Translations under genes and position numbers: made by a program
Shown: piece by piece, positions 2,817 through 34,600 of the stretch
Numbering within the stretch: position 1 is the first letter of the stretch
How the letters are laid out: each line of letters starts with the position of its first letter
Notes under the pieces: model-generated
The model's input: the letters and a program-made list of their open reading frames with translations, nothing else
Database searches by the model: none
Told to the model about the DNA's origin: nothing
DNA from: a virus
DNA length: 34,600 nucleotides
IMG/VR virus record: IMGVR_UViG_3300025917_000011
Span: 1 to 34,600 of that record
Strand: one strand, 5' to 3'

Positions 2817-3058
2817 GCGCAAGCAACGCAACAGTGGCGACGGGTCATCACTGCGGCAGACCGATAGGCGGCGTTGCAACGTGGCTAGGCGGATTGCCAC
2901 ACCACCCCGAATGCACGCATGGACCTGGCTACCCGACGCACTATGCACCCCTCGCGTCTGAACATGAAGGGTGCAAGCCGCTGCACCAGATAACTGAAAA
3001 CGATGTGCGCCGGATCGTCAGGGAAGAACTGGCGCGCGTAGCGCGTCCGCTGGAATGA
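2813..3058 (+). CDS. Hypothetical Cys/His-containing protein, 81 aa.
   Basis: ORF 2645..3058 trimmed to the ATG at 2813, which overlaps the upstream stop (ATGA). Confidence 0.5.
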   Translation: MSASNATVATGHHCGRPIGGVATWLGGLPHHPECTHGPGYPTHYAPLASEHEGCKPLHQITENDVRRIVREELARVARPLE

Positions 3059-3089
3059 CGAGTTAGGTTGCGTACGGCCGAAGAAAATC

Positions 3090-3317
3090 ATGGGACAAGC
3101 TCAAGACATGTTTGCGGCATTGATGCCGCCGAAGCCGCCTAGGGCAAAGCCGCGCGTGATGATGCACGTCACCGATGGCGGATACGTGGATGGGCTGGGC
3201 GACGCCGCAACGTTTAAGTGCGACCGGTGCGGCCATGAATCTGACTGGACGCGGATCAATGGGGTCACGGATGTCAGGCGCGGATTCCCGTGCCCGAAGT
3301 GCAACGAAGCAACCTAA
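3090..3317 (+). CDS. Small zinc-ribbon protein, 75 aa (CDRC ... CPKC).
   Basis: ORF track; two CxxC pairs. Bracketed by the inverted 10-12-mer GAGTTAGGTTGC / GCAACCTAAC. Confidence 0.55.
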   Translation: MGQAQDMFAALMPPKPPRAKPRVMMHVTDGGYVDGLGDAATFKCDRCGHESDWTRINGVTDVRRGFPCPKCNEAT

Positions 3318-3379
3318 CGCTGGAAATCAGCCGCCGCGTAGCGGTCGGCTGGATTGACTTATTGGACGGCAGGAGACGA

Positions 3380-3613
3380 ATGGTGCGAGTGCTCTCATTG
3401 AAGAAAAACCGACCGGAATACCTGCGCCGAGTGCGCGCGCAAACGCTGGCATGGATAAACGGACGACCCTACCACGATCCCGTGACCAATGAATGCTGCC
3501 CTGATTTTTCATGTTGCAAACCATCGCTGTTTACAAAAGACGCCGAACAGCGGCAACGCGAAGGGCTGGAAATGCTGCGTCGCGAGGGCGCGGATATGCC
3601 GCCCAACGGCTGA
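3380..3613 (+). CDS. Hypothetical Cys-rich protein, 77 aa (ECCPDFSCC).
   Basis: ORF 3290..3613 trimmed to the ATG at 3380, which lies behind AGGAG. Confidence 0.45.
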   Translation: MVRVLSLKKNRPEYLRRVRAQTLAWINGRPYHDPVTNECCPDFSCCKPSLFTKDAEQRQREGLEMLRREGADMPPNG

Positions 3614-3685
3614 ATTTAGGCGCCGTTGCGAAGCAACGGTCGCCTGGAATGAATTGTTGGGCGGCAACCGCCTACGGAGAACAGC

Positions 3686-3922
3686 ATGGACATTTATTTG
3701 AACGGGGAGAAGGTGACAGTGCAGCCGGGGCGTGGGAGCAAGCCTGGTGCGCGCATGAGCGCGAGCTACGAACTGCTCGCCGAACTTGCAGGTTTGAAGG
3801 GTTGCATGCCGACGATCACATGGCGCGCGCCGGACAAGACCATGGGCCACGTGGGGATGGGCCAAAGGGTGCAGCTTGTTGAAGGCATGCAGATTGACGC
3901 TTGTGTCACCGGATGTGCGTAA
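3686..3922 (+). CDS. Hypothetical protein, 78 aa; possibly a beta-grasp (ubiquitin-like) fold.
   Basis: ORF track with a GGAGA Shine-Dalgarno. The MDIYLNGEKVTV ... RVQLVEGMQIDA pattern resembles ThiS/multiubiquitin-type small domains; this is a weak impression only. Confidence 0.5.
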   Translation: MDIYLNGEKVTVQPGRGSKPGARMSASYELLAELAGLKGCMPTITWRAPDKTMGHVGMGQRVQLVEGMQIDACVTGCA

Positions 3923-3925
3923 CCG

Positions 3926-4150
3926 ATGAAACTGACCGCCTCGCAAGCTGCATGGCTGCGCTGGCTGGCCGAACGTGGCGGCTCTGGATACCTGGACCGC
4001 TACGGACGAGTGAATGCGCAGGGCGAGAATGCACCCCTCGCAGCATGGCCGGCATGGATGAACCTTGTGGCTGCCGGGTTGCTGGCTGGCGGCGAGCAGC
4101 GCCTGACGATCACGGATTACGGCAAGCAACATTTGCCGCCCAACAGTTGA
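3926..4150 (+). CDS. Hypothetical protein, 74 aa.
   Basis: ORF track. Same strand and tight spacing within the early operon. Confidence 0.45.
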   Translation: MKLTASQAAWLRWLAERGGSGYLDRYGRVNAQGENAPLAAWPAWMNLVAAGLLAGGEQRLTITDYGKQHLPPNS

Positions 4151-4205
4151 GTTGTGCGGCGCGAGCGATTAGCGAGCGTCCGAACGAACGAGGAGTTAGG
4201 TTGCC

Positions 4206-4454
4206 ATGAGCGCCCTAAGACACATTGAGCTGCTTTGCGACATTTGCGAAAACTCTGAATGGCTTGCGGGCAGGACTGTAGCAGCCGTCAGGGCCGAGGC
4301 AAGGCGGCGCGGCTGGCGGGTGGCGCTGCACAAGTCCAAGGTGCCACAAGCCGAGGACGCTCCGTGGCGCGGCAGCAGGAAGGACGTTTGCCCGCGATGC
4401 GCTAAACAACCTAACTCTGTTTTAGACCCCCAAAACAGCAATATGCACCCTTAA
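4206..4454 (+). CDS. Small zinc-ribbon protein, 82 aa (CDIC ... CPRC).
   Basis: ORF track. Same CxxC...CP[KR]C architecture as 3090..3317 and bracketed by the same inverted 11-12-mer. Confidence 0.55.
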   Translation: MSALRHIELLCDICENSEWLAGRTVAAVRAEARRRGWRVALHKSKVPQAEDAPWRGSRKDVCPRCAKQPNSVLDPQNSNMHP

Positions 4455-4467
4455 ACGAGCGTTAATC

Positions 4468-4665
4468 ATGACTGACACTGATGATTACAGAACCGCGACT
4501 GCGCCGCTTCAAAACATGACATTCACAGACTTCGTGCGATGGGCGGTTTTGGAATTGCTCAACAATGGCGAAACACAGATTGAATTTGAGATTCCCGGCA
4601 TGTCGCAAGATGGAGTCAAAAAATACATGCTCGCCTTCCAGGTGCGCCTTGAGGAGGTGCAATGA
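4468..4665 (+). CDS. Hypothetical protein, 65 aa.
   Basis: ORF track. Its stop overlaps the next ATG. Confidence 0.45.
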   Translation: MTDTDDYRTATAPLQNMTFTDFVRWAVLELLNNGETQIEFEIPGMSQDGVKKYMLAFQVRLEEVQ

Positions 4666-5033
4666 CTGACACAACCCTGCCGCCCGAGGTCGCGGAAGCG
4701 ATGCCGGAGGGTGCACAAACCGAGCTGCAAGTGTTGGCTAATTACATTGAGCCAGGGGACGCAAGCGTGGCCTTCCACCTGATAGCAAGACGATTGCACA
4801 TCCTCGCCGAGGAAAACGCGCGGCTGCTGGCGGCGAACCGTGACTGCGTGGATCACTTCGAGCAGATGCGGGCCGAACGCGACGCGCTCAAGGCGAGGAT
4901 CGCGGAGGCGAGGCGAGTGATGCTCGGCACGTATCCGGCGCACGGTAGCGGCTACGTGCAGATTGTCTCCGACCCCGCGAATGGGATTGGCGACGAAACC
5001 TTCGCCCTGCTCAAGCTGGAGGACGGCGAATGA
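4662..5033 (+). CDS. Hypothetical coiled-coil protein, 123 aa.
   Basis: ORF track; GAGGAGG Shine-Dalgarno directly upstream. Confidence 0.55.
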   Translation: MTDTTLPPEVAEAMPEGAQTELQVLANYIEPGDASVAFHLIARRLHILAEENARLLAANRDCVDHFEQMRAERDALKARIAEARRVMLGTYPAHGSGYVQIVSDPANGIGDETFALLKLEDGE

Positions 5034-5299
5034 ACTGGCAACCGATTGAGACTTGTCCGAGGGACGGCTCGTGCTTCCTAGTCTGGGTGCACGCGGAAAC
5101 TCACGGCGAAAACGATGAAGGTTTCCCCACGGTTGCCGACAATTCCTATGCGGACATTGGATGGTGGCGCGCTGGGACCGATCCTGTTCTATATGGCTAC
5201 GTTGACTTCGGCGGCCAGAACACGCACCACGTAGACGAGCCGGAGTATTGGATGCCCCTACCACCACCGCCAAGCTGGAGGACGGCGAGCGGTGAGTGA
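5030..5299 (+). CDS. DUF551-family phage protein.
   Basis: The N-terminal W.PIETCPRDG and C-terminal EYWMPLPPPP match the DUF551 signature (W..i...P ... HWMPLPePP). GGAGGA Shine-Dalgarno upstream. Confidence 0.65.
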   Translation: MNWQPIETCPRDGSCFLVWVHAETHGENDEGFPTVADNSYADIGWWRAGTDPVLYGYVDFGGQNTHHVDEPEYWMPLPPPPSWRTASGE

Positions 5300-6116
5300 A
5301 GATAGCCAGCATTGGTACTTGCCGGATGGCACGCCGTTCTACGAATGCAAGGCGCGCGATGGACACATGCGTCCTGTCACGCTTCGTGACGCCCGCAAGG
5401 TTCACGCCGTGCCCAGCGTCACCACCGTATTATCCGTGGTGGCCAAGCCGAATCTGGAAGCTTGGAAAGTCCAGCAAGGGATTCTCGCCGCGCTGACGTT
5501 GCCACGCCGCCCAGACGAATCCGAGGTGGACTGGCTGCAAAGGGTGCGCGACGACGCCAAGGCGCAGGCCAAGGCTGCCGCCGAGGAAGGCTCACGCATC
5601 CACGCGGCCCTCGAAGCCCACGCACGCGGCCAAGCGTATCCCCAGCGCTATCAGCCCCACGTACAGGTTGTCTGGGCCGAGATTGCGAAACTGTACCCGG
5701 ACATCACGGACTGGGTGCCGGAAACCCGCTTTGCCCATCCGGATGGTTTCGGCGGCATGTGCGACCTGCACTCGCCCTCGACGGGCGTGTGTCTGGACTA
5801 CAAAGGCAAGGATGGGGACTTTTCGGACGGGAAGCGCATGGCCTACGACCAGCATTGGCAACTGGCGGGCTACCAGCGCGGCATGGAACTCCCCAAGGCG
5901 ACGTGCGCCAGCGTATTTGTATCCCGCACGCATCCTGGCAAAGTAGCCAGCCACGTCTGGAGCACCGAGGACATGCAGCAAGGCCAGCGGGTGTTTGATG
6001 CCGCGCTGGCGCTCTGGCAGGCGATCAAGAATTACCCGGCGGCGCAGTCCGCCCAGATGATAGCCTCTTCGAGGTACGGCGTGTCGACGGACCATCCGGA
6101 CGGCAACCGCAGGTAG
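5292..6116 (+). CDS. PD-(D/E)XK exonuclease, RecB/Cas4-like.
   Basis: Ordered motifs GSRIHAALE, GGMCDLH, CLDYKGK and QLAGY fit the RecB-family nuclease motif set. GTG start with GGAGGA 9 nt upstream. Confidence 0.8.
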   Translation: MSEDSQHWYLPDGTPFYECKARDGHMRPVTLRDARKVHAVPSVTTVLSVVAKPNLEAWKVQQGILAALTLPRRPDESEVDWLQRVRDDAKAQAKAAAEEGSRIHAALEAHARGQAYPQRYQPHVQVVWAEIAKLYPDITDWVPETRFAHPDGFGGMCDLHSPSTGVCLDYKGKDGDFSDGKRMAYDQHWQLAGYQRGMELPKATCASVFVSRTHPGKVASHVWSTEDMQQGQRVFDAALALWQAIKNYPAAQSAQMIASSRYGVSTDHPDGNRR

Positions 6117-6199: not shown

Positions 6200-6383
6200 G
6201 ACGCGCCCCTCCATTGGTCGCATTCATTTCCACCAGCGCGAGCCTCAAGCACTCCGCGCATGCGTTGAACAGCTCGGCGTTCAATCCGCACGGCGTATCG
6301 GCCAGAACCTGACGGAGGAAGGTGTACACCTTGCGCCCGGCAGCCATGCGTGCGGCGCGTTTCTTGCCAAGAGGCCGATTCAT
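6183..6383 (-). CDS. Hypothetical basic protein, 66 aa.
   Basis: ORF 6183..6515 trimmed to the ATG at 6383, which overlaps the upstream stop (ATGA). Confidence 0.45.
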   Translation of the reverse strand: MNRPLGKKRAARMAAGRKVYTFLRQVLADTPCGLNAELFNACAECLRLALVEMNATNGGARHARQA

Positions 6384-6676
6384 GACTGCGCTTCCCGAGC
6401 ATCGCGGAATCCCGCCCGATACGCGTGCATCAGGCTGAACAGATCGCGGGCACTTCCGGCCCTCAAGAGGGACCGCTCGCCGCCGCGTTCGTTCGTAATC
6501 TCGCTCAATCCCCACGCCAAGCCGTTGAGCGTCGATCCGCGGTTGATGATCAACTTGCCCACCAGCGCCACCAATCGATCCCCGTGGCGCGTGTAGGTGT
6601 AATCGTTCGGACGCCCCATCTCCCGCGCCATGATATCGCGCAGCGCGTTCAGGTCTTTTACCGTGATCCTATTCAT
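6380..6676 (-). CDS. Hypothetical protein, 98 aa (MNRITVKDLNALRDIM...).
   Basis: ORF 6380..6799 trimmed to the ATG at 6676, which overlaps the upstream stop (ATGA). Confidence 0.55.
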   Translation of the reverse strand: MNRITVKDLNALRDIMAREMGRPNDYTYTRHGDRLVALVGKLIINRGSTLNGLAWGLSEITNERGGERSLLRAGSARDLFSLMHAYRAGFRDAREAQS

Positions 6677-6825
6677 GACCGCGCCCTCCGCTTCATGGCT
6701 GCAAGTTGCGCCTTCGTCGGCGGCTTCACCTTCAGCGGAGCGAGCTTGACCCGCGCCTCTTCCCGTACCGCCTTGCATTCCGCGATCCACTCCGCCCAAG
6801 ACCGTTCATCCACCTTCGTATCCAT
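6673..6825 (-). CDS. Hypothetical protein, 50 aa (MDTKVDERSWAEWIAECKAVREEARVKLAPLKVKPPTKAQLAAMKRRARS).
   Basis: Hand translation; below the ORF-track cutoff. GAGGG lies 8 nt upstream. It is the first gene downstream of the sigma-54-like promoter. Confidence 0.4.
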   Translation of the reverse strand: MDTKVDERSWAEWIAECKAVREEARVKLAPLKVKPPTKAQLAAMKRRARS

Positions 6826-6870
6826 GGCTCAACCCTCAATCAAGCAACCCAAGCGGCTGCACCATAGGTA

Positions 6871-6888
6871 ATGCAAGTCGCGTGCCAA
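6871..6888 (-). promoter_or_regulatory. Sigma-54 (RpoN) type -24/-12 promoter reading leftward.
   Basis: The minus strand reads TGGCACGCGACTTGCAT, an exact match to TGGCACG-N4-TTGCW. The ATG at 6825 lies 46 nt after the -12 element. Confidence 0.6.
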
Positions 6889-6913
6889 CAGCTTTCAGCC
6901 CTATTCACATCAA

Positions 6914-6936
6914 AAAGTGACGCGCAACGTCACTTT
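6914..6936. promoter_or_regulatory. Palindromic site AAAGTGACG-N5-CGTCACTTT; candidate operator or enhancer site.
   Basis: Perfect 9-bp arms, read directly. Centred about 64 nt upstream of the predicted sigma-54 transcription start. Confidence 0.6.
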
Positions 6937-6948
6937 CCATGCCCTAAA

Positions 6949-6975
6949 ACGTCACCAAGTGACGCAATACGTCAT
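6949..6975. promoter_or_regulatory. Second site cluster: ACGTCAC-N3-GTGACG-N5-CGTCAT.
   Basis: Uses the same GTGACG/CGTCAC half-sites. The GTGACG-N5-CGTCAT dyad is centred 42 bp (about 4 helical turns) from the first dyad. Confidence 0.55.
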
Positions 6976-7103
6976 CTTCTTCCGTTCAGTCACCCAGCCC
7001 AACAACAACCCAACAACGGCCTTTCGTGTGCATGTGTTATGTGAGTGAGGATGGGTGGACGGGGAAAGTACACCCACACCCACCTATCCTTGGTTCTCAA
7101 ACC

Positions 7104-7124
7104 AATACTGATCAGTACAGTATT
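7104..7124. repeat. Palindrome TACTGATCAGTA (7106-7117) nested in AATACTG...CAGTATT.
   Basis: Perfect 12-bp palindrome centred on GATC, read directly. Confidence 0.85.
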
Positions 7125-7169
7125 CATCCAATCATTCATGGATCACCAAAGGTACAGCCATTGCCCGGC

Positions 7170-7189
7170 AACGGTCGATCAGGACCGTT
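7170..7189. repeat. Inverted repeat AACGGTC-GATCAG-GACCGTT.
   Basis: Perfect 7-bp arms around a spacer that contains GATC. Confidence 0.85.
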
Positions 7190-7410
7190 CAAACTGCTCA
7201 CTGATGGGAGAGCCCAAGAATGCTTTGTGAAGGGCGAACAGCATGGAATTGTTTTGCACCCACACTACGCCCACCCCAAAAAAATCCTGTGGAAAGGGTT
7301 GTGTAAAGGGTAGTTGACAAGTAAGTGGATTAACCTTTGATTTCTTATAGGAATCAATTATTTAGTAATACATTCATAAACAGTGGTTTCGACAGAGTGA
7401 TTTCCGACGA

Positions 7411-7643
7411 CTGCTTTTGATCTTGGCTACGGGCTTGCGATGGTTTTGATCTGGATTTTCTCAAAGGCTTTTGCTTTTGATCGCGGTAGGTCGAAGCGGT
7501 GTTTGAACGCTTGCTGGGGTCTGGCTCTTGATCTGCATGCTCGCGGTAGGTTGACCTAAGGCGAGCGTGGAGATCAAGAGCCAGGAAGGGGCGAAAGACG
7601 ATCCCGGGCTACGTAGGCGGGGCGATCAAAGGCAAAAGCCTTT
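7411..7643. other. Putative origin of replication: GATC-bearing iterons plus a nested dyad centred near 7553.
   Basis: Direct repeats of (T)GCTTTTGATC-like sequence have their GATC at 7419, 7448, 7479 and 7530, with the first three spaced about 30 bp apart. The 14-bp perfect arms 7521-7534 and 7571-7584, and the 22-nt arms 7463-7484 and 7622-7643 (21/22 complementary), share one centre. There are 7 GATC sites in 209 bp. An AT-rich tract (7321-7380, about 23% GC) and two 7/9 DnaA-box-like sites (7288-7296, 7324-7332) lie just upstream. Confidence 0.5.
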
Positions 7644-7739
7644 GGAGGAAAGCCGGGGAGCAGGAGCGAAAGCAGAAGCTTGCCTGATTCACGTACTCAA
7701 GCGTATGGGCAGGGGTTGGTATAAGATAAAGAAGGGATG

Positions 7740-7837
7740 CTCTGGAACCCGCATCAGGACGCGGGTACAGTAAATTGATTGACGCACGGAAAAATATCGT
7801 ATAGTTTATATGCCTTCATTGGATGCGGGTTCCAGAG
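7740..7837. repeat. Perfect 16-bp inverted repeat (CTCTGGAACCCGCATC at 7740-7755, GATGCGGGTTCCAGAG at 7822-7837) enclosing the rep promoter.
   Basis: Read directly. A T6 run follows at 7844-7849, just before the rep Shine-Dalgarno. Confidence 0.85.
7779..7807 (+). promoter_or_regulatory. Candidate sigma-70 promoter for the RepL-like gene: TTGACG-N17-TAGTTT.
   Basis: The hexamers are read from the sequence. TATAGT at 7800 is an alternative -10 with a 15-nt spacer. Confidence 0.4.
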
Positions 7838-7859
7838 GCTCGCTTTTTTGGAGGAAAAA

Positions 7860-8261
7860 ATGCAACCTGAACGGAGTACAGTAATTGGCGATGACTTCGT
7901 GATGCTGATCCAGAACAAGAAGTGGGGCCAAAAATTGATGGATTTTAAGGAGTTGGGGTTCCGGACCCGGGTGCTTTTGGTCTTGTTGGACAAGGTGACG
8001 TACGGGAACGAGGTGTGGCAGACGGGAACGAGCATTGCCAAGACCCTTGGAACCTCTCCCATGGTGGTGAATCGTCATTTGGCGTATTACGCGAAGGTCG
8101 GTCTGATTCGTCGCGGAGGGGATGGGGAACGCTTCAAGATTTATCTCAACGAGGATTTTTTCTGGAAGGGCGGACGTGTCGGACGCATCATCGCCAAGCG
8201 CCAGTCCACAACCCACCGGTTCCAGCGATCCCGTGAGGTGCCATCGTGCGAACGTACTTGA
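7860..8261 (+). CDS. Winged-helix replication initiator candidate, RepL-like.
   Basis: GGAGGA Shine-Dalgarno then ATG at 7860. The pattern RVLLVLLDKVTYGNEVWQTGTSIAKTLGTSPMVVNRHLAYYAKVGLIRR ... KIYLNEDFFWKG resembles RepL-family wHTH proteins. It lies directly downstream of the iteron region. GC is about 48%. Confidence 0.5.
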   Translation: MQPERSTVIGDDFVMLIQNKKWGQKLMDFKELGFRTRVLLVLLDKVTYGNEVWQTGTSIAKTLGTSPMVVNRHLAYYAKVGLIRRGGDGERFKIYLNEDFFWKGGRVGRIIAKRQSTTHRFQRSREVPSCERT

Positions 8262-8485
8262 GGGTTCCCTACGCCGAGAAGGACGCCGCCAAGCGTGCGG
8301 GCGCGCGCTGGGACGGCGAAAAGCGCTTGTGGTACGTGCAGGACATGGACAATCTGCGCCCCGTGATGCCGTGGATTCCCGAAGCCCTGAAACGACCATG
8401 GAACGCGCGTTCGCTTCCCCGCAAACCCGAGCCTTCCCTTTCTCCGAAAAGGGCGTACACTCTGCCCAGCCGACACGGAGCCTGA
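8246..8485 (+). CDS. DUF5710 domain protein, 79 aa.
   Basis: YLRVPYAEKDAAKRAGARWDGEKRLWYV matches the DUF5710 signature seen at the N-termini of plasmid and phage primase/helicase-type proteins. GTG start. Confidence 0.7.
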   Translation: MRTYLRVPYAEKDAAKRAGARWDGEKRLWYVQDMDNLRPVMPWIPEALKRPWNARSLPRKPEPSLSPKRAYTLPSRHGA

Positions 8486-8487
8486 TC

Positions 8488-8706
8488 ATGCCCTTCCCGA
8501 TGCGTCCCGCGAATCCCCCGCAATTCCTTCCCACGGGAGGCAATCCCAAGGTCCGTACGTTCCGCCCCAATGGCCTGGATGGTTTTACCGGCCCCGACTA
8601 TCGCGAACGCCGCATGGCCGGTCCCGTGATTCCTGCGCTGGCTCCGGCGCGCAGCGTCAAGCGAATGGGTGTCGCGGTCGGAAATCGTGGAGAGTGGAAA
8701 CGGTGA
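8488..8706 (+). CDS. Possible hypothetical protein, 72 aa.
   Basis: Distal part of ORF 8122..8706, from the ATG 3 nt after the upstream stop. Third codon positions are moderately GC-rich and no motif was recognised. Confidence 0.3.
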   Translation: MPFPMRPANPPQFLPTGGNPKVRTFRPNGLDGFTGPDYRERRMAGPVIPALAPARSVKRMGVAVGNRGEWKR

Positions 8707-9053
8707 GGACGAACCTTGGGGTGAGGATGGCGATCCGCCGCTCCCCCATCGCCGCTTCCGATTGGGCACGCGAACTGGGCGTGGGTCATTCCGAAATCGT
8801 CAAGCTGCGCGATGGCTGGTCCTGCATCCAGCACGGACCTTTGATGCAACGCCTTGTCCGCATGCTGCAAGCCTTGGATGAAGGGCGCGTGCATTGGGAG
8901 AAGCGTCCGGCCCGTCGTCCCAAGGGACGCCCCTATCACGTGCTGGTCGGCAACGAGAAGTTCACCCCTTCAACCATGGGCCTGTACGCCGATTTCACCA
9001 CCGGCCGCATGGTCAAACGCGCATGGAGCGAATCCGATGCGCTTTCCTGTTGA
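8694..9053 (+). CDS. HTH DNA-binding protein; candidate small terminase subunit.
   Basis: HTH-like segment ASDWARELGVGHSEIVKLRDG. It sits immediately upstream of, and overlaps, terL. The start is uncertain (8694, 8703 or 8727). Confidence 0.4.
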   Translation: METVRTNLGVRMAIRRSPIAASDWARELGVGHSEIVKLRDGWSCIQHGPLMQRLVRMLQALDEGRVHWEKRPARRPKGRPYHVLVGNEKFTPSTMGLYADFTTGRMVKRAWSESDALSC

Positions 9054-10833
9054 ACAATTCCGAACGTTCTGCGGTGCACTGCAACTCAATTCCAAGGAAC
9101 AGGGCCGGGTACGTTTCACGTGGAACGGTGCCCAGCGCCGTTTCATCGATCTTGTTGCCAAGGGACTGGAAAAAGGCATCCACAAGTTTGTCGTGTGCAA
9201 GGCCCGCCAGCTTGGCCTCACGACGGTTTGCCTCGCGTTGGACCTTTTCTGGCTGTATCGGAATGCCGGGATGCAAGGCGCGATGGCGGTTCCGAATGAA
9301 ACGGTCCGCGACCTGTCCCGCAACATCATCGACAATTACATCGACGGCCTTCCGCCTTCAATGAAGTGGCCGAGGCTGCTTAACAACCGCAACGAAATGC
9401 GTTTTGCCAACGAATCACGCCTTGCCCATCTGATCGCGGGTGGACGCAACTCGGGCGCGTTGGCACGCGGTCAGGGCCTCTCTTTCGTCCACGCCACCGA
9501 AATGTCGTCGTGGGCCGATCCCGAAGGCGTGATTTCGCTTGAGGCGTCGATGGCTGAAACCCACAAGCGCCGCCTGTATGTGTTCGAGAGCACCTCGCGC
9601 GGCTTCAACGTGTTCCACGACATGTGGAAGGACGCCGAGCTTTCGATGTCCACCGAGGCCGTTTTCATTGGGTGGTGGGCCAAGGAGGATTACCGGATCG
9701 AGGAAACCTCGCGGCTCTGGAACACCTATGGCCGCAGCCACTTGTCCGCCGAGGAAAAGATGTGGGGGAAGGAAGTCAAGAAGCTCTACGGCGTGGAACT
9801 GGACCGCCAGCAATGGGCGTGGTGGCGCTGGAAGTGGGCGGAAAGCGGCGGCAGTCGGCTGCTGCTCGCCGAATATCCCTTCACCGCCGACCAATCCTTC
9901 GTCATGACGGGAAGCGAATTTTTCCCCTTGCAAACGCTCCAGGACATGCTGAAACGGACGCATGGGGATGAAGGCGAGTCGTGGAACTACAAGCTCTCGA
10001 CCCGTTTCGAGAACACGGAAGTTTACCGCGACGAGGACGGTCCCTTGACCGTGTGGGAAGAACCGCAACCGGATTGTGCCTACGTGATCGCCGCCGACCC
10101 TGCCTACGGCGAATCGGAATGGGCGGACTGCTTTTGCATCGAAGTCCTGAAATGCACCGCGACGGGCGCCGAACAGGTGGCGGAATTCAACACGCCCGAT
10201 TGCACCATGTACGGCTTTGCGTGGATCATGGCGCATTTGGCAGGTGCCTATTCGACGCCCAGGCATGCACCGACCGTGATCCTGGAATTGGGCGGACCGG
10301 GGCGCGGCGTTTTGCAGGAACTTCAACGGATGCCAAGCCAGTACGCCGCGACCGTGGCGGGCCTTTCGGATCGTGCACGGGCGGAACTCGCCGACATTTT
10401 CGGTTCGATCCAGCACTACCTGTACCGGCGCCCCGACAGCCTTTCCGGTTCGTCCCTGTTGCAATGGGAAACCACGTGGAAGACCAAGCAGATCATGATG
10501 AACACGCTGCGTGACCTGATTGAACGCGGCATGATCAAGATTCGCAGCGAAGCGTGGATCAACGAAGCGCGCTACGTGACCCAGAACGGCACATCGATCA
10601 AGGCCGAAGGCCGCACGCAGAAGGATGATCGGGTGATTGCCATGGCCTTGGGCTGCATGGCGTGGCAGGAACAATTGATGCCCCAGTTGTTGATGGGCCG
10701 GGGCATGGACGAATATTCCGGAATGGAGCACAATGCGGTCGCGCGTTCGATTGGGAACTGGCTGTCCAACCTCAACGCACAGACCGAAGAATCGAATTGG
10801 CAGAAAGCCGGGAGCATGTCATGGCAAGACTGA
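9037..10833 (+). CDS. terL: Terminase large subunit.
   Basis: ATPase motifs are KARQLGLTT (Walker A-like) and LSFVHATEMSSW. RNaseH-like nuclease motifs are YVIAADPAYGESEWADCF and KDDRVIAMALGCMAW. ORF 8854..10833 is trimmed to the ATG at 9037. Confidence 0.9.
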   Translation: MRFPVEQFRTFCGALQLNSKEQGRVRFTWNGAQRRFIDLVAKGLEKGIHKFVVCKARQLGLTTVCLALDLFWLYRNAGMQGAMAVPNETVRDLSRNIIDNYIDGLPPSMKWPRLLNNRNEMRFANESRLAHLIAGGRNSGALARGQGLSFVHATEMSSWADPEGVISLEASMAETHKRRLYVFESTSRGFNVFHDMWKDAELSMSTEAVFIGWWAKEDYRIEETSRLWNTYGRSHLSAEEKMWGKEVKKLYGVELDRQQWAWWRWKWAESGGSRLLLAEYPFTADQSFVMTGSEFFPLQTLQDMLKRTHGDEGESWNYKLSTRFENTEVYRDEDGPLTVWEEPQPDCAYVIAADPAYGESEWADCFCIEVLKCTATGAEQVAEFNTPDCTMYGFAWIMAHLAGAYSTPRHAPTVILELGGPGRGVLQELQRMPSQYAATVAGLSDRARAELADIFGSIQHYLYRRPDSLSGSSLLQWETTWKTKQIMMNTLRDLIERGMIKIRSEAWINEARYVTQNGTSIKAEGRTQKDDRVIAMALGCMAWQEQLMPQLLMGRGMDEYSGMEHNAVARSIGNWLSNLNAQTEESNWQKAGSMSWQD

Positions 10834-11241: not shown

Positions 11242-11741
11242 AGCGCTGGCGCTGCAACGCGTGTCTCAAACGCGGCCTTCCTGCCGAGGAATGCGAATGG
11301 GAAGATCATCTGACCCAAAGCCATTGCCGGGCGTGCGGCGAAGCGGCCACGCGCATCATGGAATTCGGCTGTTTCCAGTGCCACGACGAAGGTGTTATTT
11401 TTTTCGGGGAAGTCGCAAGCTCGCATCCTTGCCCCGAATGCGGCTCGGACGCCTTCCGGATCGTGTATGCACCTGCCGTGATCGGGCAGGCGAGCCGTGC
11501 CGCGCATGCCGCCGCCGACAAGCTGCTCGAAACTGAATTGCAGAACCAGAAAATCTCGACCACCAGCCTCAAGCGTGAACCCAAGCGCAAGGCCGAAGCC
11601 GCTCCCGGCCCCTTCGCAGCCCACTGGTCGGACGCCAAGGAACTCTTACCGGCAGGCGGCCGGGGCGTAGGGGGGCAATTGCCCTTCGGCATGCCGCGTC
11701 CCATTACTGCCGTCGTCGGAAAGTACGACGGTCCAGCCTGA
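11238..11741 (+). CDS. Protein with four CxxC pairs (double zinc ribbon), 167 aa.
   Basis: CNAC, CRAC, CFQC and CPEC pairs. GTG start overlaps the upstream stop. Lies between terL and the portal gene. Confidence 0.55.
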   Translation: MKRWRCNACLKRGLPAEECEWEDHLTQSHCRACGEAATRIMEFGCFQCHDEGVIFFGEVASSHPCPECGSDAFRIVYAPAVIGQASRAAHAAADKLLETELQNQKISTTSLKREPKRKAEAAPGPFAAHWSDAKELLPAGGRGVGGQLPFGMPRPITAVVGKYDGPA

Positions 11742-13420
11742 TGCGTATACCTCTCGCCATCGACGAGCGGTCGGCATGGCTGGATCGTACACGCCAGCAG
11801 TTGCGGCGTTCGCTCGACCAGCGCCGTGGCCACTATGGATCGTGGCGGACGTGGTATCTACATGGGGGATTTGAGTGGGGCGCGCGTTACAACAAGATCG
11901 GGCCGCAACTCAACACCCTTTCGTCCTATCTCTACTCGCCGCGTTCGGTGCGTTTTGGCCTGAACGCGGGTCCTTTGGCGGATGAAGGCCAATTGGGCAT
12001 GTACGAAGCAGTCTCGGACCGCCTGCGTTCGTTGTGGGGCGAGTCCGGCGCAGATCAGCACTACGCCCACGGCGCCCTGTGGTCGCTGGTGTACGGCTGC
12101 GAAGTTCAGAAATTCGGATGGGGCGCCAAGCGTCCACGCTGTGATGCCGTGGGGGCAGGCAATTTCGGCGTGTGGCGGGATGATTTGCCGGGACTCGAAG
12201 GCCAGCAGGCCCTTTTGCACACTTTTCGGCTGGACGTCGATACGGTGCGGGGTTGGCTGATCGGCGCGGGCATGCCAGAAATGGAAGCCGAGCGCTGGAT
12301 ACGTCGCTGGGGCGAAGGCAAACCTGCTGCACACATGGCACAAGGCACGCTCGCGATCGGTGCGCAGAATCCGATCGTCTGGAATGGGAGCGCGCCGGGC
12401 ACCGTGGCGGGGGGCGTGGCAGATTGGGGGTCGACTTCAGCAGTCTATGACGCGGCTTCGGACACGCCAACGCTCGAAATCGAAGAAATCTGGGCGATGG
12501 ATGATCGCACCCACGATTACCGCATCTTCCAGACAGTGGAACACGATTTGATCCTTTCGGATCGCAAAAATGATTTCCTGCCGCACCACCATCCCTTTGT
12601 GCAGATGACGGTCGATCCAATCGACGATTATTTCTGGGGGTATTCGACGGTCGCGCAATTGATTCCCCTGCAGGCGTGGCGCGAAAAGCGCATGAACCAG
12701 TTGGACCGCCTGTTCGCGCGCCAAGCCAATCCGCCGATGGTCTTTTCAGGCTTCATGGGCGGTGTATCGGATGAAAAGGCGGCGGCGGTCATGCGTCGCG
12801 GTGGTTTGCTCGCCAATTCCCAGACGCCAAGCGCCAAGGTGGACTTGCTCACCCCAAACATCAATGAGCTTTCGTTCACCGAAATTGGCGAGATCGATCA
12901 GATGTTCAATGAAACACTGGGCTTGACCGCTGCTTTGCAGGGCGCATCGACCGGCGGCGAACGTGGCGGTGAACACGCACGCGCTGTCATGAGCGCGGGA
13001 GCGGGCCGTTTGACCCGGCGCATGATGAATGTGGAACGCGCGGTCGCCGAAGGCGCCTCGTTGTTGCTGGGGTTGGCGCGTCGATACGACGATACGATGC
13101 TCGTGACGGAGGATGGCATGAAGTTCACGCTGGCGATGTTGCCGGGCGATGCCAATGTCGAAGTCGCTTCGCATTCGGCGTCACCCTTGTTTGCAGGACA
13201 GGCCCAGCAACAGGCTGAACAATTGATGGAATTGGGCGTTATCGACAAGGAAGATTTCCTTGACCTTGCCGACCCGCCGATGGCGCAAGCCTTGAAGCAG
13301 CGGTTGAAGAAACGCGAGGCGCAACAGGCGCAGCAGATGCAGCAGGCGATTGCATCGGTGCCCGAAGCCGAACGCGGAAGCTTGCTCGGCAAGATTTTCG
13401 GCGGAAGGAGCAAACACTGA
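11741..13420 (+). CDS. Portal protein (putative).
   Basis: 559 aa, located after the terminase and before scaffold and capsid. The acidic/Gln-rich C-terminus is typical of portals. The call is positional plus size; no diagnostic motif was seen. Confidence 0.7.
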   Translation: MRIPLAIDERSAWLDRTRQQLRRSLDQRRGHYGSWRTWYLHGGFEWGARYNKIGPQLNTLSSYLYSPRSVRFGLNAGPLADEGQLGMYEAVSDRLRSLWGESGADQHYAHGALWSLVYGCEVQKFGWGAKRPRCDAVGAGNFGVWRDDLPGLEGQQALLHTFRLDVDTVRGWLIGAGMPEMEAERWIRRWGEGKPAAHMAQGTLAIGAQNPIVWNGSAPGTVAGGVADWGSTSAVYDAASDTPTLEIEEIWAMDDRTHDYRIFQTVEHDLILSDRKNDFLPHHHPFVQMTVDPIDDYFWGYSTVAQLIPLQAWREKRMNQLDRLFARQANPPMVFSGFMGGVSDEKAAAVMRRGGLLANSQTPSAKVDLLTPNINELSFTEIGEIDQMFNETLGLTAALQGASTGGERGGEHARAVMSAGAGRLTRRMMNVERAVAEGASLLLGLARRYDDTMLVTEDGMKFTLAMLPGDANVEVASHSASPLFAGQAQQQAEQLMELGVIDKEDFLDLADPPMAQALKQRLKKREAQQAQQMQQAIASVPEAERGSLLGKIFGGRSKH

Positions 13421-20452: not shown

Positions 20453-22213
20453 ATGGCCATCATTGTCTCCAACGAAAGCAGCCTTGAGCGCGATCCGATG
20501 CAGGAAGCGATCCAGCAGGCACTTGCGGGCATGGACCTCTCACGCGTGCAGGATTCTCGGGCGGCGTTTCGCTACGCCGTATCATCTGTGGATCAAGGCA
20601 ATGTACCGACACTGGTCGGTGCGCAGACGGGCGGCAATTCAGGCACGTTGGGACCGACTTCGCCTGTAACGATCATCGGCGAAGATTCCATTGTCACCAC
20701 CACGACAGCCAACCTGACCACCATCAAACTGGTCAGCGATCAAGGCGGCGGGGGCTTGCCCGGCAACACGTACTACTACGGCACTGGGCCTACGGGCGTT
20801 AAAGGGTTCTACACGGTCGCCTCCACTATGGCCGTGGCATCCACCAGTCGCTTGACCGACACGGTTGGCAGCAATGGCGTATCGACCTTCGATCTTGCGA
20901 CGGTTGCCGATTCCGGCACCGGTAGTTTGCTGGCGCTGGTGAAGGACGCATGGGGCCGCATCACGGGCACCAAGGCGGCGACTATCACGGGCACCGCAGG
21001 ACGTGTCACGGTCGCCAATGGCAACGCCTCGGCAGGTTTGCCCACGATTGACCTTGCCACCACAGCCGTCACGGCAGGAAGCTATGGCGACGCCACGCAC
21101 GTTGCAACCTTCACCGTGGATGCCTATGGAAGGCTGACGGTGGCAGGATCAACGGCTATCGCTTTCCCTTCATCGTTGCCCCCTTCAGGCCCAGCAGGTG
21201 GAAGCCTCGCGGGCACCTACCCCAACCCATCGATTGCCAACAGTGGCGTGACAGCGGCAGCGTATGGTGATTCGACGCATGTGGCGACCTTTACTGTAGG
21301 CACCGATGGGCGCTTGACGGTCGCGGGGAGCACGGCTATCGCCTTCCCCGTCACGTCCGTATTCGGGCGCACAGGTGCTGTGATCGCTGCGGCGAATGAC
21401 TACACCTTTGCGCAGATCGGCAGCAAGCCGACAACGGTTGCAGGCTATGGCATCACGAACGCGCTGGTGACCACGAACAATCTTTCGGACGTTGCCAGCG
21501 CGTCAACTTCGCGCACCAATCTGGGCATCGTGATTCCCCAAGGCTACATCGACGGCCTGCAAATGCAGTGGGTGAGCGGGACGTCGATCACGGTCACCAG
21601 CGGCAATGCCTACATTCCGAGTCTTGCGAATGTGCTGGCATGTCCTAATGCCATGACGCTTTCGGGTCTTTCACTCACGGCCTCGACTTGGTATCACATT
21701 TACCTTTACAGCAACGCCGGAACGCCTGCGATTGAATGCGTGACGACGGTGCCGGTTCTGTACAACGGCACGGCGTACCAGAAAACGGGGGACAACTCAC
21801 GTCGGTATGTGGGGAGTGTGCGCACCAATGCAAGTGCCAGTATCCAGCCCTTTCAGATGGATTCAGGTGGAAACATATTTTATGGTGTTCCTCCAAATAC
21901 TAATGGGTTGCGTGCTTTGTCAAATGGCATGGCGACAACGAGAACTGCGTTCTCGGTTGGGATTGGGATACCTGTTACGGCAACATATTGCATATTTGAA
22001 CTAACTAACACTGATACTAGCGTTTTTGTAAATTTCGGGAATCCTATGAACCCGTCGCCCGGAGGGGTATTAGGTGTTGCGCCTGGAGGACCTCGAGCAG
22101 GGGCAATAGTGAGTTTCACGTGTGATGATAATCAAAATGTTGATTACTTTTATACCAGTTCTCCAACAAGTGGATTTTATCTTGACATTTATGGGTATCA
22201 CGCAAATCGTTAG
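20453..22213 (+). CDS. Tail fibre protein.
   Basis: Duplicated motif [11 protein letters not shown]...[14 protein letters not shown]. Also [21 protein letters not shown] and [17 protein letters not shown], which resemble conserved tail-fibre shaft motifs. The C-terminal part is low in GC. Confidence 0.8.
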
Positions 22214-31073: not shown

Positions 31074-31508
31074 TCACGCGGCCCACTGCCCCGTTTCGAT
31101 CATGTTGGCGAGGCGCGTGTAGCGGACTGGAAGCTCCCGGTAAACCTTCGTGGCGCGAAGATCATCGGCAGCCGCCTGCCAGCGCTGGGCGGCGATGTAG
31201 CCGAAGAACACACTGAACGTCGCAATCGACCCGGTGCCGAGATTGAAGAGCATGTCGGCGATGGCGGCTTGGCGGACATCATTCAGCAACGCCCACCAGG
31301 ACTCGGTAGACGCTACCGCCAGCACGGCATCCAGATCGTGCTGGAATTGCAGCATGGCCGCTTGATTCAGGAGCGCCCACACGTCGGTTGCCGGTGGCGA
31401 GGCATCGAGGTTGTGCCCCACGCCCCACGTACGGTGCCCGGTGGTGTCTACATACGGCCAGATGCGTAGCCCTTCATCGTGCAGGATCAGCGATTGCATG
31501 TCAGTCAT
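31074..31508 (-). CDS. Endolysin, T4-lysozyme-like muramidase (GH24).
   Basis: LHDEGLRIWPYVDTTGHRTWGVGHN carries the Glu-8aa-Asp-5aa-Thr catalytic pattern of GH24 lysozymes. Confidence 0.85.
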   Translation of the reverse strand: MTDMQSLILHDEGLRIWPYVDTTGHRTWGVGHNLDASPPATDVWALLNQAAMLQFQHDLDAVLAVASTESWWALLNDVRQAAIADMLFNLGTGSIATFSVFFGYIAAQRWQAAADDLRATKVYRELPVRYTRLANMIETGQWAA

Positions 31509-34295: not shown

Positions 34296-34490
34296 ATGTG
34301 CACTATTCCGGGCGACAAGATGGCTGAAGCCATGCGCGATGAAATGCAGCGCATGGACGTGATGGCCAAGACGCTCAACCAAATTAATGCGGTATTCGGA
34401 CCCGCTTTGCAGCGGGCACGCGAGCAAGCAGACAAAATTCAACGCGCCGCCGAGCTGTGCCGCGAAGTCGACGAGGATGCGCAGCCATGA
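34296..34490 (+). CDS. Hypothetical protein, 64 aa.
   Basis: ORF track; GGAGGA lies 8 nt upstream. Confidence 0.5.
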   Translation: MCTIPGDKMAEAMRDEMQRMDVMAKTLNQINAVFGPALQRAREQADKIQRAAELCREVDEDAQP

Positions 34491-34600
34491 AAGCCAATGG
34501 AACAGCAAGGGTCAAAGTTTGTCGGGCCCTCGCGCCGAGTGCGGCGCCCACCACCAAGACAGTTGATGTACGCATCACTGCGAAACGCGTCTATGTGCCT
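34474..34600. repeat. Terminal direct duplication, right copy of 1-127.
   Basis: Exact 127-bp identity with the window start. Unique genome length is therefore about 34,473 bp. Confidence 0.9.
34487..34600 (+). CDS. Duplicate 5' part of the ORF annotated at 14..232, truncated by the window end.
   Basis: Lies inside the 127-bp terminal duplication and is the same gene as 14..232. Confidence 0.5.
   Translation, partial: MKANGTARVKVCRALAPSAAPTTKTVDVRITAKRVYVP

Follow-up and report, generated by a model that had tools for sequence, protein, structure and literature searches.

What is the only sizeable stretch without a plausible open reading frame (ORF) in a phage genome for? The question is raised by positions 6826–7859 of a viral sequence of 34,600 nt (positions 1–34,600 of IMG/VR record IMGVR_UViG_3300025917_000011; this whole stretch is referred to as the window), where a gap divides three small leftward genes from a rightward run made up of the genes for a winged-helix protein, a DUF5710 protein, a 72-aa protein, a 119-aa helix-turn-helix (HTH) protein and the large terminase (TerL). 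An earlier examination of the letters alone (the sequence-only reading) had described the gap as an iteron-type, methylation-sensitive plasmid origin with a neighbouring initiator gene. In our view the gap is a modular control region, with a short leftward early operon on one side and a rightward packaging/late operon on the other. It contains a real and conserved imperfect palindrome of ~270 bases that is built of GCTYTTGATC units, and this palindrome is interpreted tentatively, with a rough probability of 0.3, as a strand-specific leader hairpin of rightward transcripts.

The non-coding character of the gap was borne out: no ORF in it is conserved, and a 95-aa ORF (7026–7313) is broken among relatives by single-base indels and by non-periodic substitutions. 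Ten GATC sites are present (7110, 7141, 7177, 7419, 7448, 7479, 7530, 7572, 7600 and 7624), seven of them in the 209 bp from 7419 to 7627, in agreement with the earlier counts and coordinates. Over its whole length the window has 213 GATC sites (6.2 per kb; 227 expected under a Markov model), so that ten sites in 1034 bp are unremarkable; the seven sites in 209 bp represent the window maximum and were equalled in 9 of 300 Markov-1 simulations (p ~0.03). The idea that GATC serves here as an origin-type signal could not be upheld, the tetramer being nothing special genome-wide and no Dam gene being returned by Pfam and PHROG scans of the non-structural ORFs of the genome.

The real repeat, and a stronger signal than GATC, is the 10-mer GCTYTTGATC. 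Six of its ten matches in 34.6 kb (≤1 mismatch) fall within 221 bp (7413–7633). Four direct copies on the + strand start at 7413, 7442, 7473 and 7524 (span 7413–7533), and two inverted copies lie on the − strand (7572–7581 and 7624–7633). The spacing of the direct GCTTTTGATCT-like copies is 29, 31 and 51 nt, as expected from the earlier description of four direct repeats, the first three ~30 bp apart. Among eight sequence variants of the element, the second direct copy (7442) lacks GATC in five and the third in one, and no variation is seen among the eight in a block of 35 nt around the fourth copy; the relatives of type II have more inverted copies than the window. A seventh near-copy, TGCTTTTGGTCTTG, 13/14 identical to the first, was seen inside the winged-helix gene (7972–7985).

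Complementarity reaches well past the 10-mers. The two arm pairs sharing one symmetry centre near 7553, which had been noticed before, were recovered as inner arms (7521–7551/7554–7584; 31 nt, 87%, the inner 14 perfect) and outer arms (7462–7484/7622–7644; 23 nt, 96%), and both dyads are predicted to be the best-paired parts of one long imperfect hairpin (~7411–7683, termed module D) that folds best on the + strand. The + strand of 7401–7700 is the strongest folding outlier of all 300-nt segments of the genome (−4.5 standard deviations after GC correction), and the − strand of the same segment lies outside the eight strongest on that strand. The + strand RNA fold amounts to −127.7 kcal/mol (z = −7.6 versus shuffled sequence); when folded as single-stranded DNA with DNA parameters, z = −8.5 was obtained on + versus −5.5 on −. 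One extended hairpin is retained in all eight variants (−126 to −154 kcal/mol). The right arm occurs in two largely different versions, yet the hairpin potential survives, and it is maintained together with the invariant 35-nt block across ~20% divergence and both arm versions.

A strand bias is also visible in the kind of pairing. The predicted folds contain 15–27 G·U pairs on the + strand versus 1–6 on the −, and an alignment of arm against arm gave 13 G·T versus 3 A·C among the transition mismatches, with every variant pointing in the same direction. In the two helices whose register is fixed, relatives differ almost exclusively by one-sided changes that preserve pairing (U-A to U-G, C-G to U-G). 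Counted over the full consensus structure, 12 pairs vary between Watson–Crick and G·U versus 2 between Watson–Crick and A·C. Taken together, the evidence tips slightly towards a function as a folded single strand.

The modular build of the region was established by comparison with relatives from viral and metagenome contigs, both close (L001, L002, L003/L004, L012, L037, L043, L052, L066, L084 and L088) and more distant (L015, L016, L020–L022 and L027). Between the window and L003, the gap is 81% identical and most neighbouring genes are 85–92% identical. Alignment of the relatives delimited a conserved motif on the + strand at 7222–7284 (module B, GCTTTG..CAC..CGCCCACCCCAAAAAAA), located at 8202–8288 in L015, ~4060–4112 in L022 and ~8390–8440 in L016. 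Module B is retained down to 63% TerL identity, where it precedes the first late gene by ~100 nt, and no other non-coding sequence in the phage group is as widely conserved as its motif (GCTTTG..CAC..CGCCCACCCCAAAAA), which may serve as a late promoter or activator site or belong to a cos site. In L016 and L022 module B stands ~100 nt before the homologue of the 72-aa gene, which identifies 7290–8487 as extra DNA in the lineage of the window.

Within this extra DNA, the palindrome and the winged-helix gene are inherited separately. L012 (TerL 99% identical) possesses the AT-rich tract and the whole hairpin, and in place of the winged-helix and DUF5710 genes it carries ~730 bp of non-coding DNA with a strong promoter and terminator. 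L015 has neither hairpin nor cassette genes; the unrelated sequence found at the position of the hairpin (8270–8700) is itself very structured on the + strand (z = −6.3 versus −4.6 on −). Conversely, L097 encodes a winged-helix homologue (P0005, 44% identical) with no dyad upstream. What lies upstream of P0005 is AAGATAAAGAAGGGAATGCCTGAAACCCGCAT, the left arm of a 28-nt inverted repeat (core CTGGAACCCGCATC / GATGCGGGTTCCAG) that in the window occupies 7728–7849 and brackets a promoter-like site (TTGACG, 15 nt, TATAGT; 7779–7805); the gene thus travels with this repeat and not with the GATC 10-mer. The inverted repeat ends in T6 right before the ribosome-binding site GGAGG, and 7822–7849 forms a terminator-like hairpin followed by T6. 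In L012 (4970–5100) and L015 (8850–8970), the first late gene is immediately preceded by a strong sigma-70-type promoter and, ~100 nt further on, a strong intrinsic terminator, a layout that resembles lambda PR'-6S-tR'; both of these relatives are without the winged-helix cassette. No amino-acid-level conservation indicative of a hidden protein gene was found in the replacement segments of L012 and L015.

The preferred interpretation combines these observations as follows. Modules A (operators by the leftward promoter, described below) and B (the CCCACCCCAAAAA motif) are part of a backbone common to distant relatives, and ~7290 to 8487 is an insert between module B and the first backbone late gene. 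The insert consists of two separable units, the first comprising the AT-rich tract and the ~270-nt GCTYTTGATC palindrome, the second the winged-helix/DUF5710 cassette with its own promoter and operator. The palindrome would work as a folded + strand, most probably as a long G·U-rich RNA hairpin in the rightward leader, where it may be a duplex substrate for RNase III, a barrier or a stabiliser. We infer that the region is transcribed rightward; the hairpin could in this way set how much upstream transcription reaches the terminator-like hairpin at 7822–7849 and the genes beyond. The position of the palindrome, downstream of module B and upstream of a hairpin followed by T6, is consistent with such a role. 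The early processing sites of T7 and the sib and N-leader hairpins of lambda are similar in being extended imperfect duplexes that tolerate G·U in untranslated parts of operons; compared with these hairpins of the RNase III type, the phage element is several times longer and is made up of internal repeats.

Several results weigh against a leader hairpin. Measured against its own shuffles, the − strand RNA fold (z = −8.7) is as exceptional as that of the + strand. The 13:3 ratio is not significant once composition is taken into account (the + strand is G+T-rich; p ~0.13 by our own estimate), a strand-biased mutation pattern could yield the same picture, and the 12:2 count leans towards G·U because the structure was predicted on the + strand. 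Folding and a comparison of covariation had been suggested earlier as a check on the region: a strong fold with strand bias was indeed obtained in all variants, whereas almost no compensatory double changes were detected in the main helices (RNAalifold, eight variants; most pairs never vary), and no match at gathering score was returned by Rfam 15 for the window or seven related loci. A permissive Rfam search (E up to 10) gave chance microRNA-like hairpin matches only. No promoter for a rightward transcript over the hairpin was identified by promoter search and by reading of the window and its relatives. Finally, four 10-mer copies at near-integral helical spacing, an invariant AT-rich tract and a perfect consensus for integration host factor (IHF) are more typical of protein-binding DNA.

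These last features lead to a close rival, likewise tentative, namely an accessory plasmid-type origin in which the AT-rich/IHF region would be unwound and the GCTYTTGATC copies would bind an initiator (winged helix plus DUF5710, or another factor), the whole being a minimal replicon that the phage has captured in addition to its own means of replication. The AT-rich tract (module C, 7319–7380, 23% GC; aligned in the window, L001, L002 and L003) had been reported at ~23% GC, and this was confirmed, with 7321–7380 (GC 0.233) being the lowest 60-mer in the window. It holds a perfect IHF consensus, AATCAATTATTTA, at 7352–7364; the 15 nt that contain it (7350–7364) do not differ among the four aligned loci, and 3 matches to the consensus occur in the window versus 0.42 expected. 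In three variants, the distance from the IHF-like site to the first repeat is altered by a 14-nt indel, which weighs slightly against a rigid protein–DNA architecture. An origin would also account for six 10-mer copies in 221 bp at near-integral helical spacing, for a repeat copy number that varies in type II relatives, and for the only large non-coding stretch of a genome without any other recognisable replication gene: the above scans returned no polymerase, primase, helicase, Rep or ParA/ParB, and no integrase, the lack of which had been pointed out before.

The putative initiator is encoded directly beside the gap (7860–8261, +) as a 133-aa generic winged-helix protein with a weak RepL/O-like signal. 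Its RepL score (PF05732) is 14.1 bits (E = 0.033; gathering cut-off 20.3), and its HTH_Crp_2 score of 16.9 bits is also below cut-off. The family is very small, with eight relatives among 1.8 billion representative proteins and none in 72,556 plasmids or 50,697 phages. Two of the eight exceed the RepL cut-off (P0006, 26.3 bits; P0009, 24.3 bits), with equal scores against Crp and MarR winged-HTH models, and the PHROG matches of family members are split between 'transcriptional regulator' and 'replication initiation O-like', the O-like ones being weak. A structure model of moderate confidence (predicted local distance difference test, pLDDT, 60 overall and 70–84 in the winged-helix core) has MarR, ArsR, CodY and RbkR regulators as its nearest solved structures. 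The earlier description of a RepL-like neighbour therefore stands as regards the winged helix and two remote relatives that pass the cut-off, and falls short as regards the sub-threshold score of the protein itself and its structural neighbours, which are regulators; as a sequence-based label, 'RepL-like' may be called weak yet not empty. Compared with L003 (1867–2259), the winged-helix gene is by far the most divergent gene (61% nucleotide identity versus 85–92% for its neighbours), and the recognition-helix segment LGTSPMVVN.HLAY is nearly invariant between the two.

The next gene (8246–8485, +) encodes a 79-aa DUF5710 protein, its earlier assignment being confirmed with E = 2e-19. DUF5710 was matched in 815 plasmids, 677 of them conjugative, under TraC, 'DNA primase', ArdC-like zincin and LPD5 features, and in no phage record; a word-index search with DUF5710 gave one near-identical cluster only. 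In Acinetobacter plasmids, Rep_3 initiators carry DUF5710 as their C-terminal domain (PMC11233732). The winged-helix homologue of L097 comes after a protein with a weak match to the DnaG-type CHC2 zinc ribbon, so that primase-associated partner domains accompany the winged helix in both places. A role of the cassette in replication is possible, as is one as a regulator. The unit further resembles phage morons in having its own promoter-like site bracketed by repeats, in its variable presence (absent from L012 and L015) and in base composition: the winged-helix gene (54% GC, not ~48% as stated before) and the gap (49%) are below the genome (59.6%), and the DUF5710 gene (64%) is not. It differs from morons in that no terminator follows the cassette, the promoter of which may also feed the packaging genes.

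One difficulty for an origin lies in inheritance. The dyad and the winged-helix gene are passed on independently of each other (L012, L097), the gene accompanies the inverted repeat around its own promoter instead of the 10-mer, and L015, L016 and L022, which have neither, show that replication of the backbone is independent of both. The gap gave no match when compared by blastn with phages, nor did the gap plus genes with plasmids. Clustered direct repeats, an AT-rich tract, an IHF-type site, GATC and a small winged-helix neighbour are shared with iteron theta origins (P1 oriR, pSC101, R6K, F). However, the repeat core measures 10–11 bp instead of 17–22 bp, conservation does not extend to its second copy, and a 270-bp dyad encloses the copies; GATC is located in the repeats and not in the AT-rich tract; and the putative initiator belongs to neither Rep_3 nor RepA. 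The DnaA-box-like 7/9 sites listed earlier do exist, but at exactly chance frequency (52 found with ≤2 mismatches, 52.4 expected). The classical iteron origin with a neighbouring initiator and Dam sensitivity accordingly fails on repeat type, DnaA boxes and co-inheritance.

Alternatively, the 10-mers may constitute a double-stranded DNA array for a phage regulator (an operator, a silencing array or a centromere-like site) that controls the early/late switch, the hairpin potential being a by-product of inverted binding sites. This is considered unlikely, even though the element is situated in a divergent control region beside clear operator-like palindromes, with copies in both orientations on roughly one helix face and with the 35-nt block around the fourth copy invariant in 8/8 variants. 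The analogous gap of L016 (TerL 63% identical) contains seven tandem 12-bp repeats (GGGCATCAGATA; 8083–8174), which would suit an array as well. Against it stand the complementarity far beyond the 10-mers, a hairpin potential that outlasts remodelling of the right arm and a substitution pattern biased towards the + strand. Moreover, nothing emerged as a candidate for the binding protein (neither the 98-aa nor the 50-aa neighbour has a family match), and neither ParA nor ParB was found.

Still less likely is a single-strand initiation signal on + DNA, comparable to palA/ssoA or Frpo/ssi, in which the folded displaced + strand would prime complementary synthesis, possibly with the help of the neighbouring small proteins with primase-associated domains. 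The strand-specific fold as single-stranded DNA (see above) would be expected of such a signal. The weak RepL match of the neighbour points the same way, RepL being the initiator family of small pSN2-type plasmids, as does the presence of DUF5710 in TraC primases of conjugative plasmids. Tailed phages that package with a terminase are not known to need a single-strand initiation signal, and the carrier here is a terminase-packaged double-stranded DNA phage. The length of ~270 nt and the imperfect-palindrome character fit the class, whose members are long (150–350 nt), imperfect, strand-specific and non-coding palindromes near replication- or primase-related genes (for the features of Frpo, see PMC11541004). 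Unlike Frpo, the stem has no TTGACA/TATAAT-like −35/−10 pair at 16–18 nt (both arms and both strands, read by eye; the CS-6 and RSB motifs of ssoA were not looked for), the best promoter-like pair within the arms being TTGATC, 16 nt, GATGGT. No HUH-type rolling-circle Rep was found in the genome by the Pfam/PHROG scans, nor is there a relaxase, and the problem of co-inheritance is the same as for an origin. A specific form of this proposal appears quite improbable to us: the palindrome and the two small genes would be a captured plasmid-leading-region or single-strand-origin module, whose strand-specific DNA hairpin would have a priming or promoter function for synthesis on single-stranded phage DNA, assisted by the RepL-like winged helix and the DUF5710 adaptor.

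Equally improbable is a selfish or neutral palindromic insertion resembling a miniature inverted-repeat transposable element (MITE) and devoid of phage function. Long imperfect palindromes are the typical form of MITE-like elements, and presence or absence among relatives at an insertion hot spot would be in keeping with one. Inspection of the sequence around the palindrome revealed neither target-site duplication nor terminal repeats, however; all further copies from the viral and metagenome collections reside in the same phage context, and the invariant 35-nt block and the hairpin potential have been preserved over ~20% divergence and in two arm versions.

A packaging site (pac or cos) is the least probable of the functions considered. 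In P1 pac, clusters of four and three TGATC(A/G) hexamers flank the cut site, and Dam methylation controls cleavage. The phage element is comparable in that GATC repeats, four to the left and two or three to the right, flank a centre, with an IHF consensus nearby and the conserved HTH protein and TerL 1.2–1.5 kb downstream; it differs in that TTGATC is embedded in a 10-mer in place of TGATCA/G and in that its arms are complementary over tens of bases. The dyad is, moreover, missing from L015 despite 76% TerL identity and 63% identity of the HTH protein (a candidate small terminase) with a conserved recognition segment, as well as from L016 and L022, which have the same packaging genes, and an accessory cassette stands between the element and these genes. 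Type III antitoxin-like repeats were rejected (the repeats have only a 10-nt core in common), as were a retron and a protelomerase site, no reverse transcriptase or protelomerase gene being found.

The remainder of the control region contains further modules. A sigma-70-like promoter on the − strand (TTGGCA, 16 nt, TATGGT; 6861–6888), kept in all relatives, serves the leftward early genes, which include a 50-aa gene (6673–6825) and a 98-aa gene (6380–6676). Just upstream of it, module A (6907–6979) consists of two 31-nt direct repeats with operator-like palindromes (GTGACG-N5-CGTCAC and CGTCAC-N3-GTGACG), kept in L001–L003 and recognisable in L015. A C/A-rich, G-poor tract on the + strand (CCCAGCCCAACAACAACCCAACAACGG, 6990–7020), also kept in relatives, could be a rut-like or Hfq/Crc-type site if transcribed rightward.

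As regards the genome as a whole, the window begins and ends with the same 127 nt (1–127 and 34474–34600), from which a circular assembly and a complete genome of 34,473 bp follow. Such an overlap is equally expected for any phage and says nothing on a phage-plasmid state. Judged from its genes, the source is a tailed phage. TerL (8854–10833; phrog_2 match) has its best database relatives among uncultured phages (~40% identity), and it is followed by a portal-sized ORF (11741–13420), the L003 counterpart of which has a weak SU10_portal Pfam match. A lysozyme gene (31074–31508) and a spanin-like gene were found in the Pfam/PHROG scans, and an exonuclease gene (5292–6116) by family match; a tRNA scan returned nothing. 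The nearest relatives in genome collections are contigs within Rhodanobacteraceae genome bins, one of them being 34,194 bp long with a TerL 76% identical. In L003, the gene at the TerL position (3053–5665) has 870 aa versus ~600–660 in other relatives, which points to a fusion or to inserted sequence such as an intein. A second low-GC patch of the window (21800–22213, 43–45%) is the C-terminal end of a 586-aa ORF (20453–22213); we suspect that it may be a horizontally exchanged receptor-binding domain. The low-GC segment 21800–22250 was rejected as an alternative origin, being the C-terminal part of this ORF.

Searches for the palindrome elsewhere also uncovered unrelated hairpins. Of the extra matches given by an 18-mer scan of viral contigs, five were due to chance and lay inside coding sequence. 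A metagenome scan with an 11+11 palindrome returned 62 loci, nine of them from this phage group; the remainder, unrelated chromosomal hairpins, sit between ordinary genes without strand bias and were therefore set aside as convergent low-complexity matches. One family among them has a perfect 28-bp stem (ACTCTTTGTCTTGCTCTTGATCTTACTC / GAGTAAGATCAAGAGCAAGACAAAGAGT) and a loop of ~16–20 nt that differs in almost every copy (L040, L042, L045, L049, L051, L055–L057, L061–L063, L065, L068, L073, L076, L079, L080, L083, L087, L090 and L094). Many copies are on large contigs from a few samples, and on comparison of two of them (L049 and L076) the hairpin may be inside a longer element bounded by inverted CTGTTGAAA ends. 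In another group (L035, L044, L050, L059/L070, L071, L074, L077, L085 and L089), stems of up to ~100 bp are composed of tandem hexamers (GCTCTT/GATCTT/GCTCCT against AAGAGC/AAGATC/AGGAGC); these hairpins lie between apparently ordinary chromosomal genes (ORF translations judged by eye) and have only an 11-nt core in common with the phage element.

For the assessment of similar loci, clusters of GATC and 7/9 DnaA boxes carry little weight at 60% GC, and co-inheritance is the more informative property. If the captured-module proposal were true, this tailed phage would possess a second, accessory replicon and perhaps also a resting state like that of a plasmid. In the case of an origin, the cassette would amount to a minimal replicon not recognised before, from a group of uncultured phages that is represented in Rhodanobacteraceae bins and lacks recognisable replication genes. 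If, as we prefer, the palindrome functions as a leader hairpin, its length (~115 base pairs) would be unusual for a cis-acting RNA in the leader of a phage late operon, and it would be an example of accessory non-coding modules that are swapped at a fixed hot spot.

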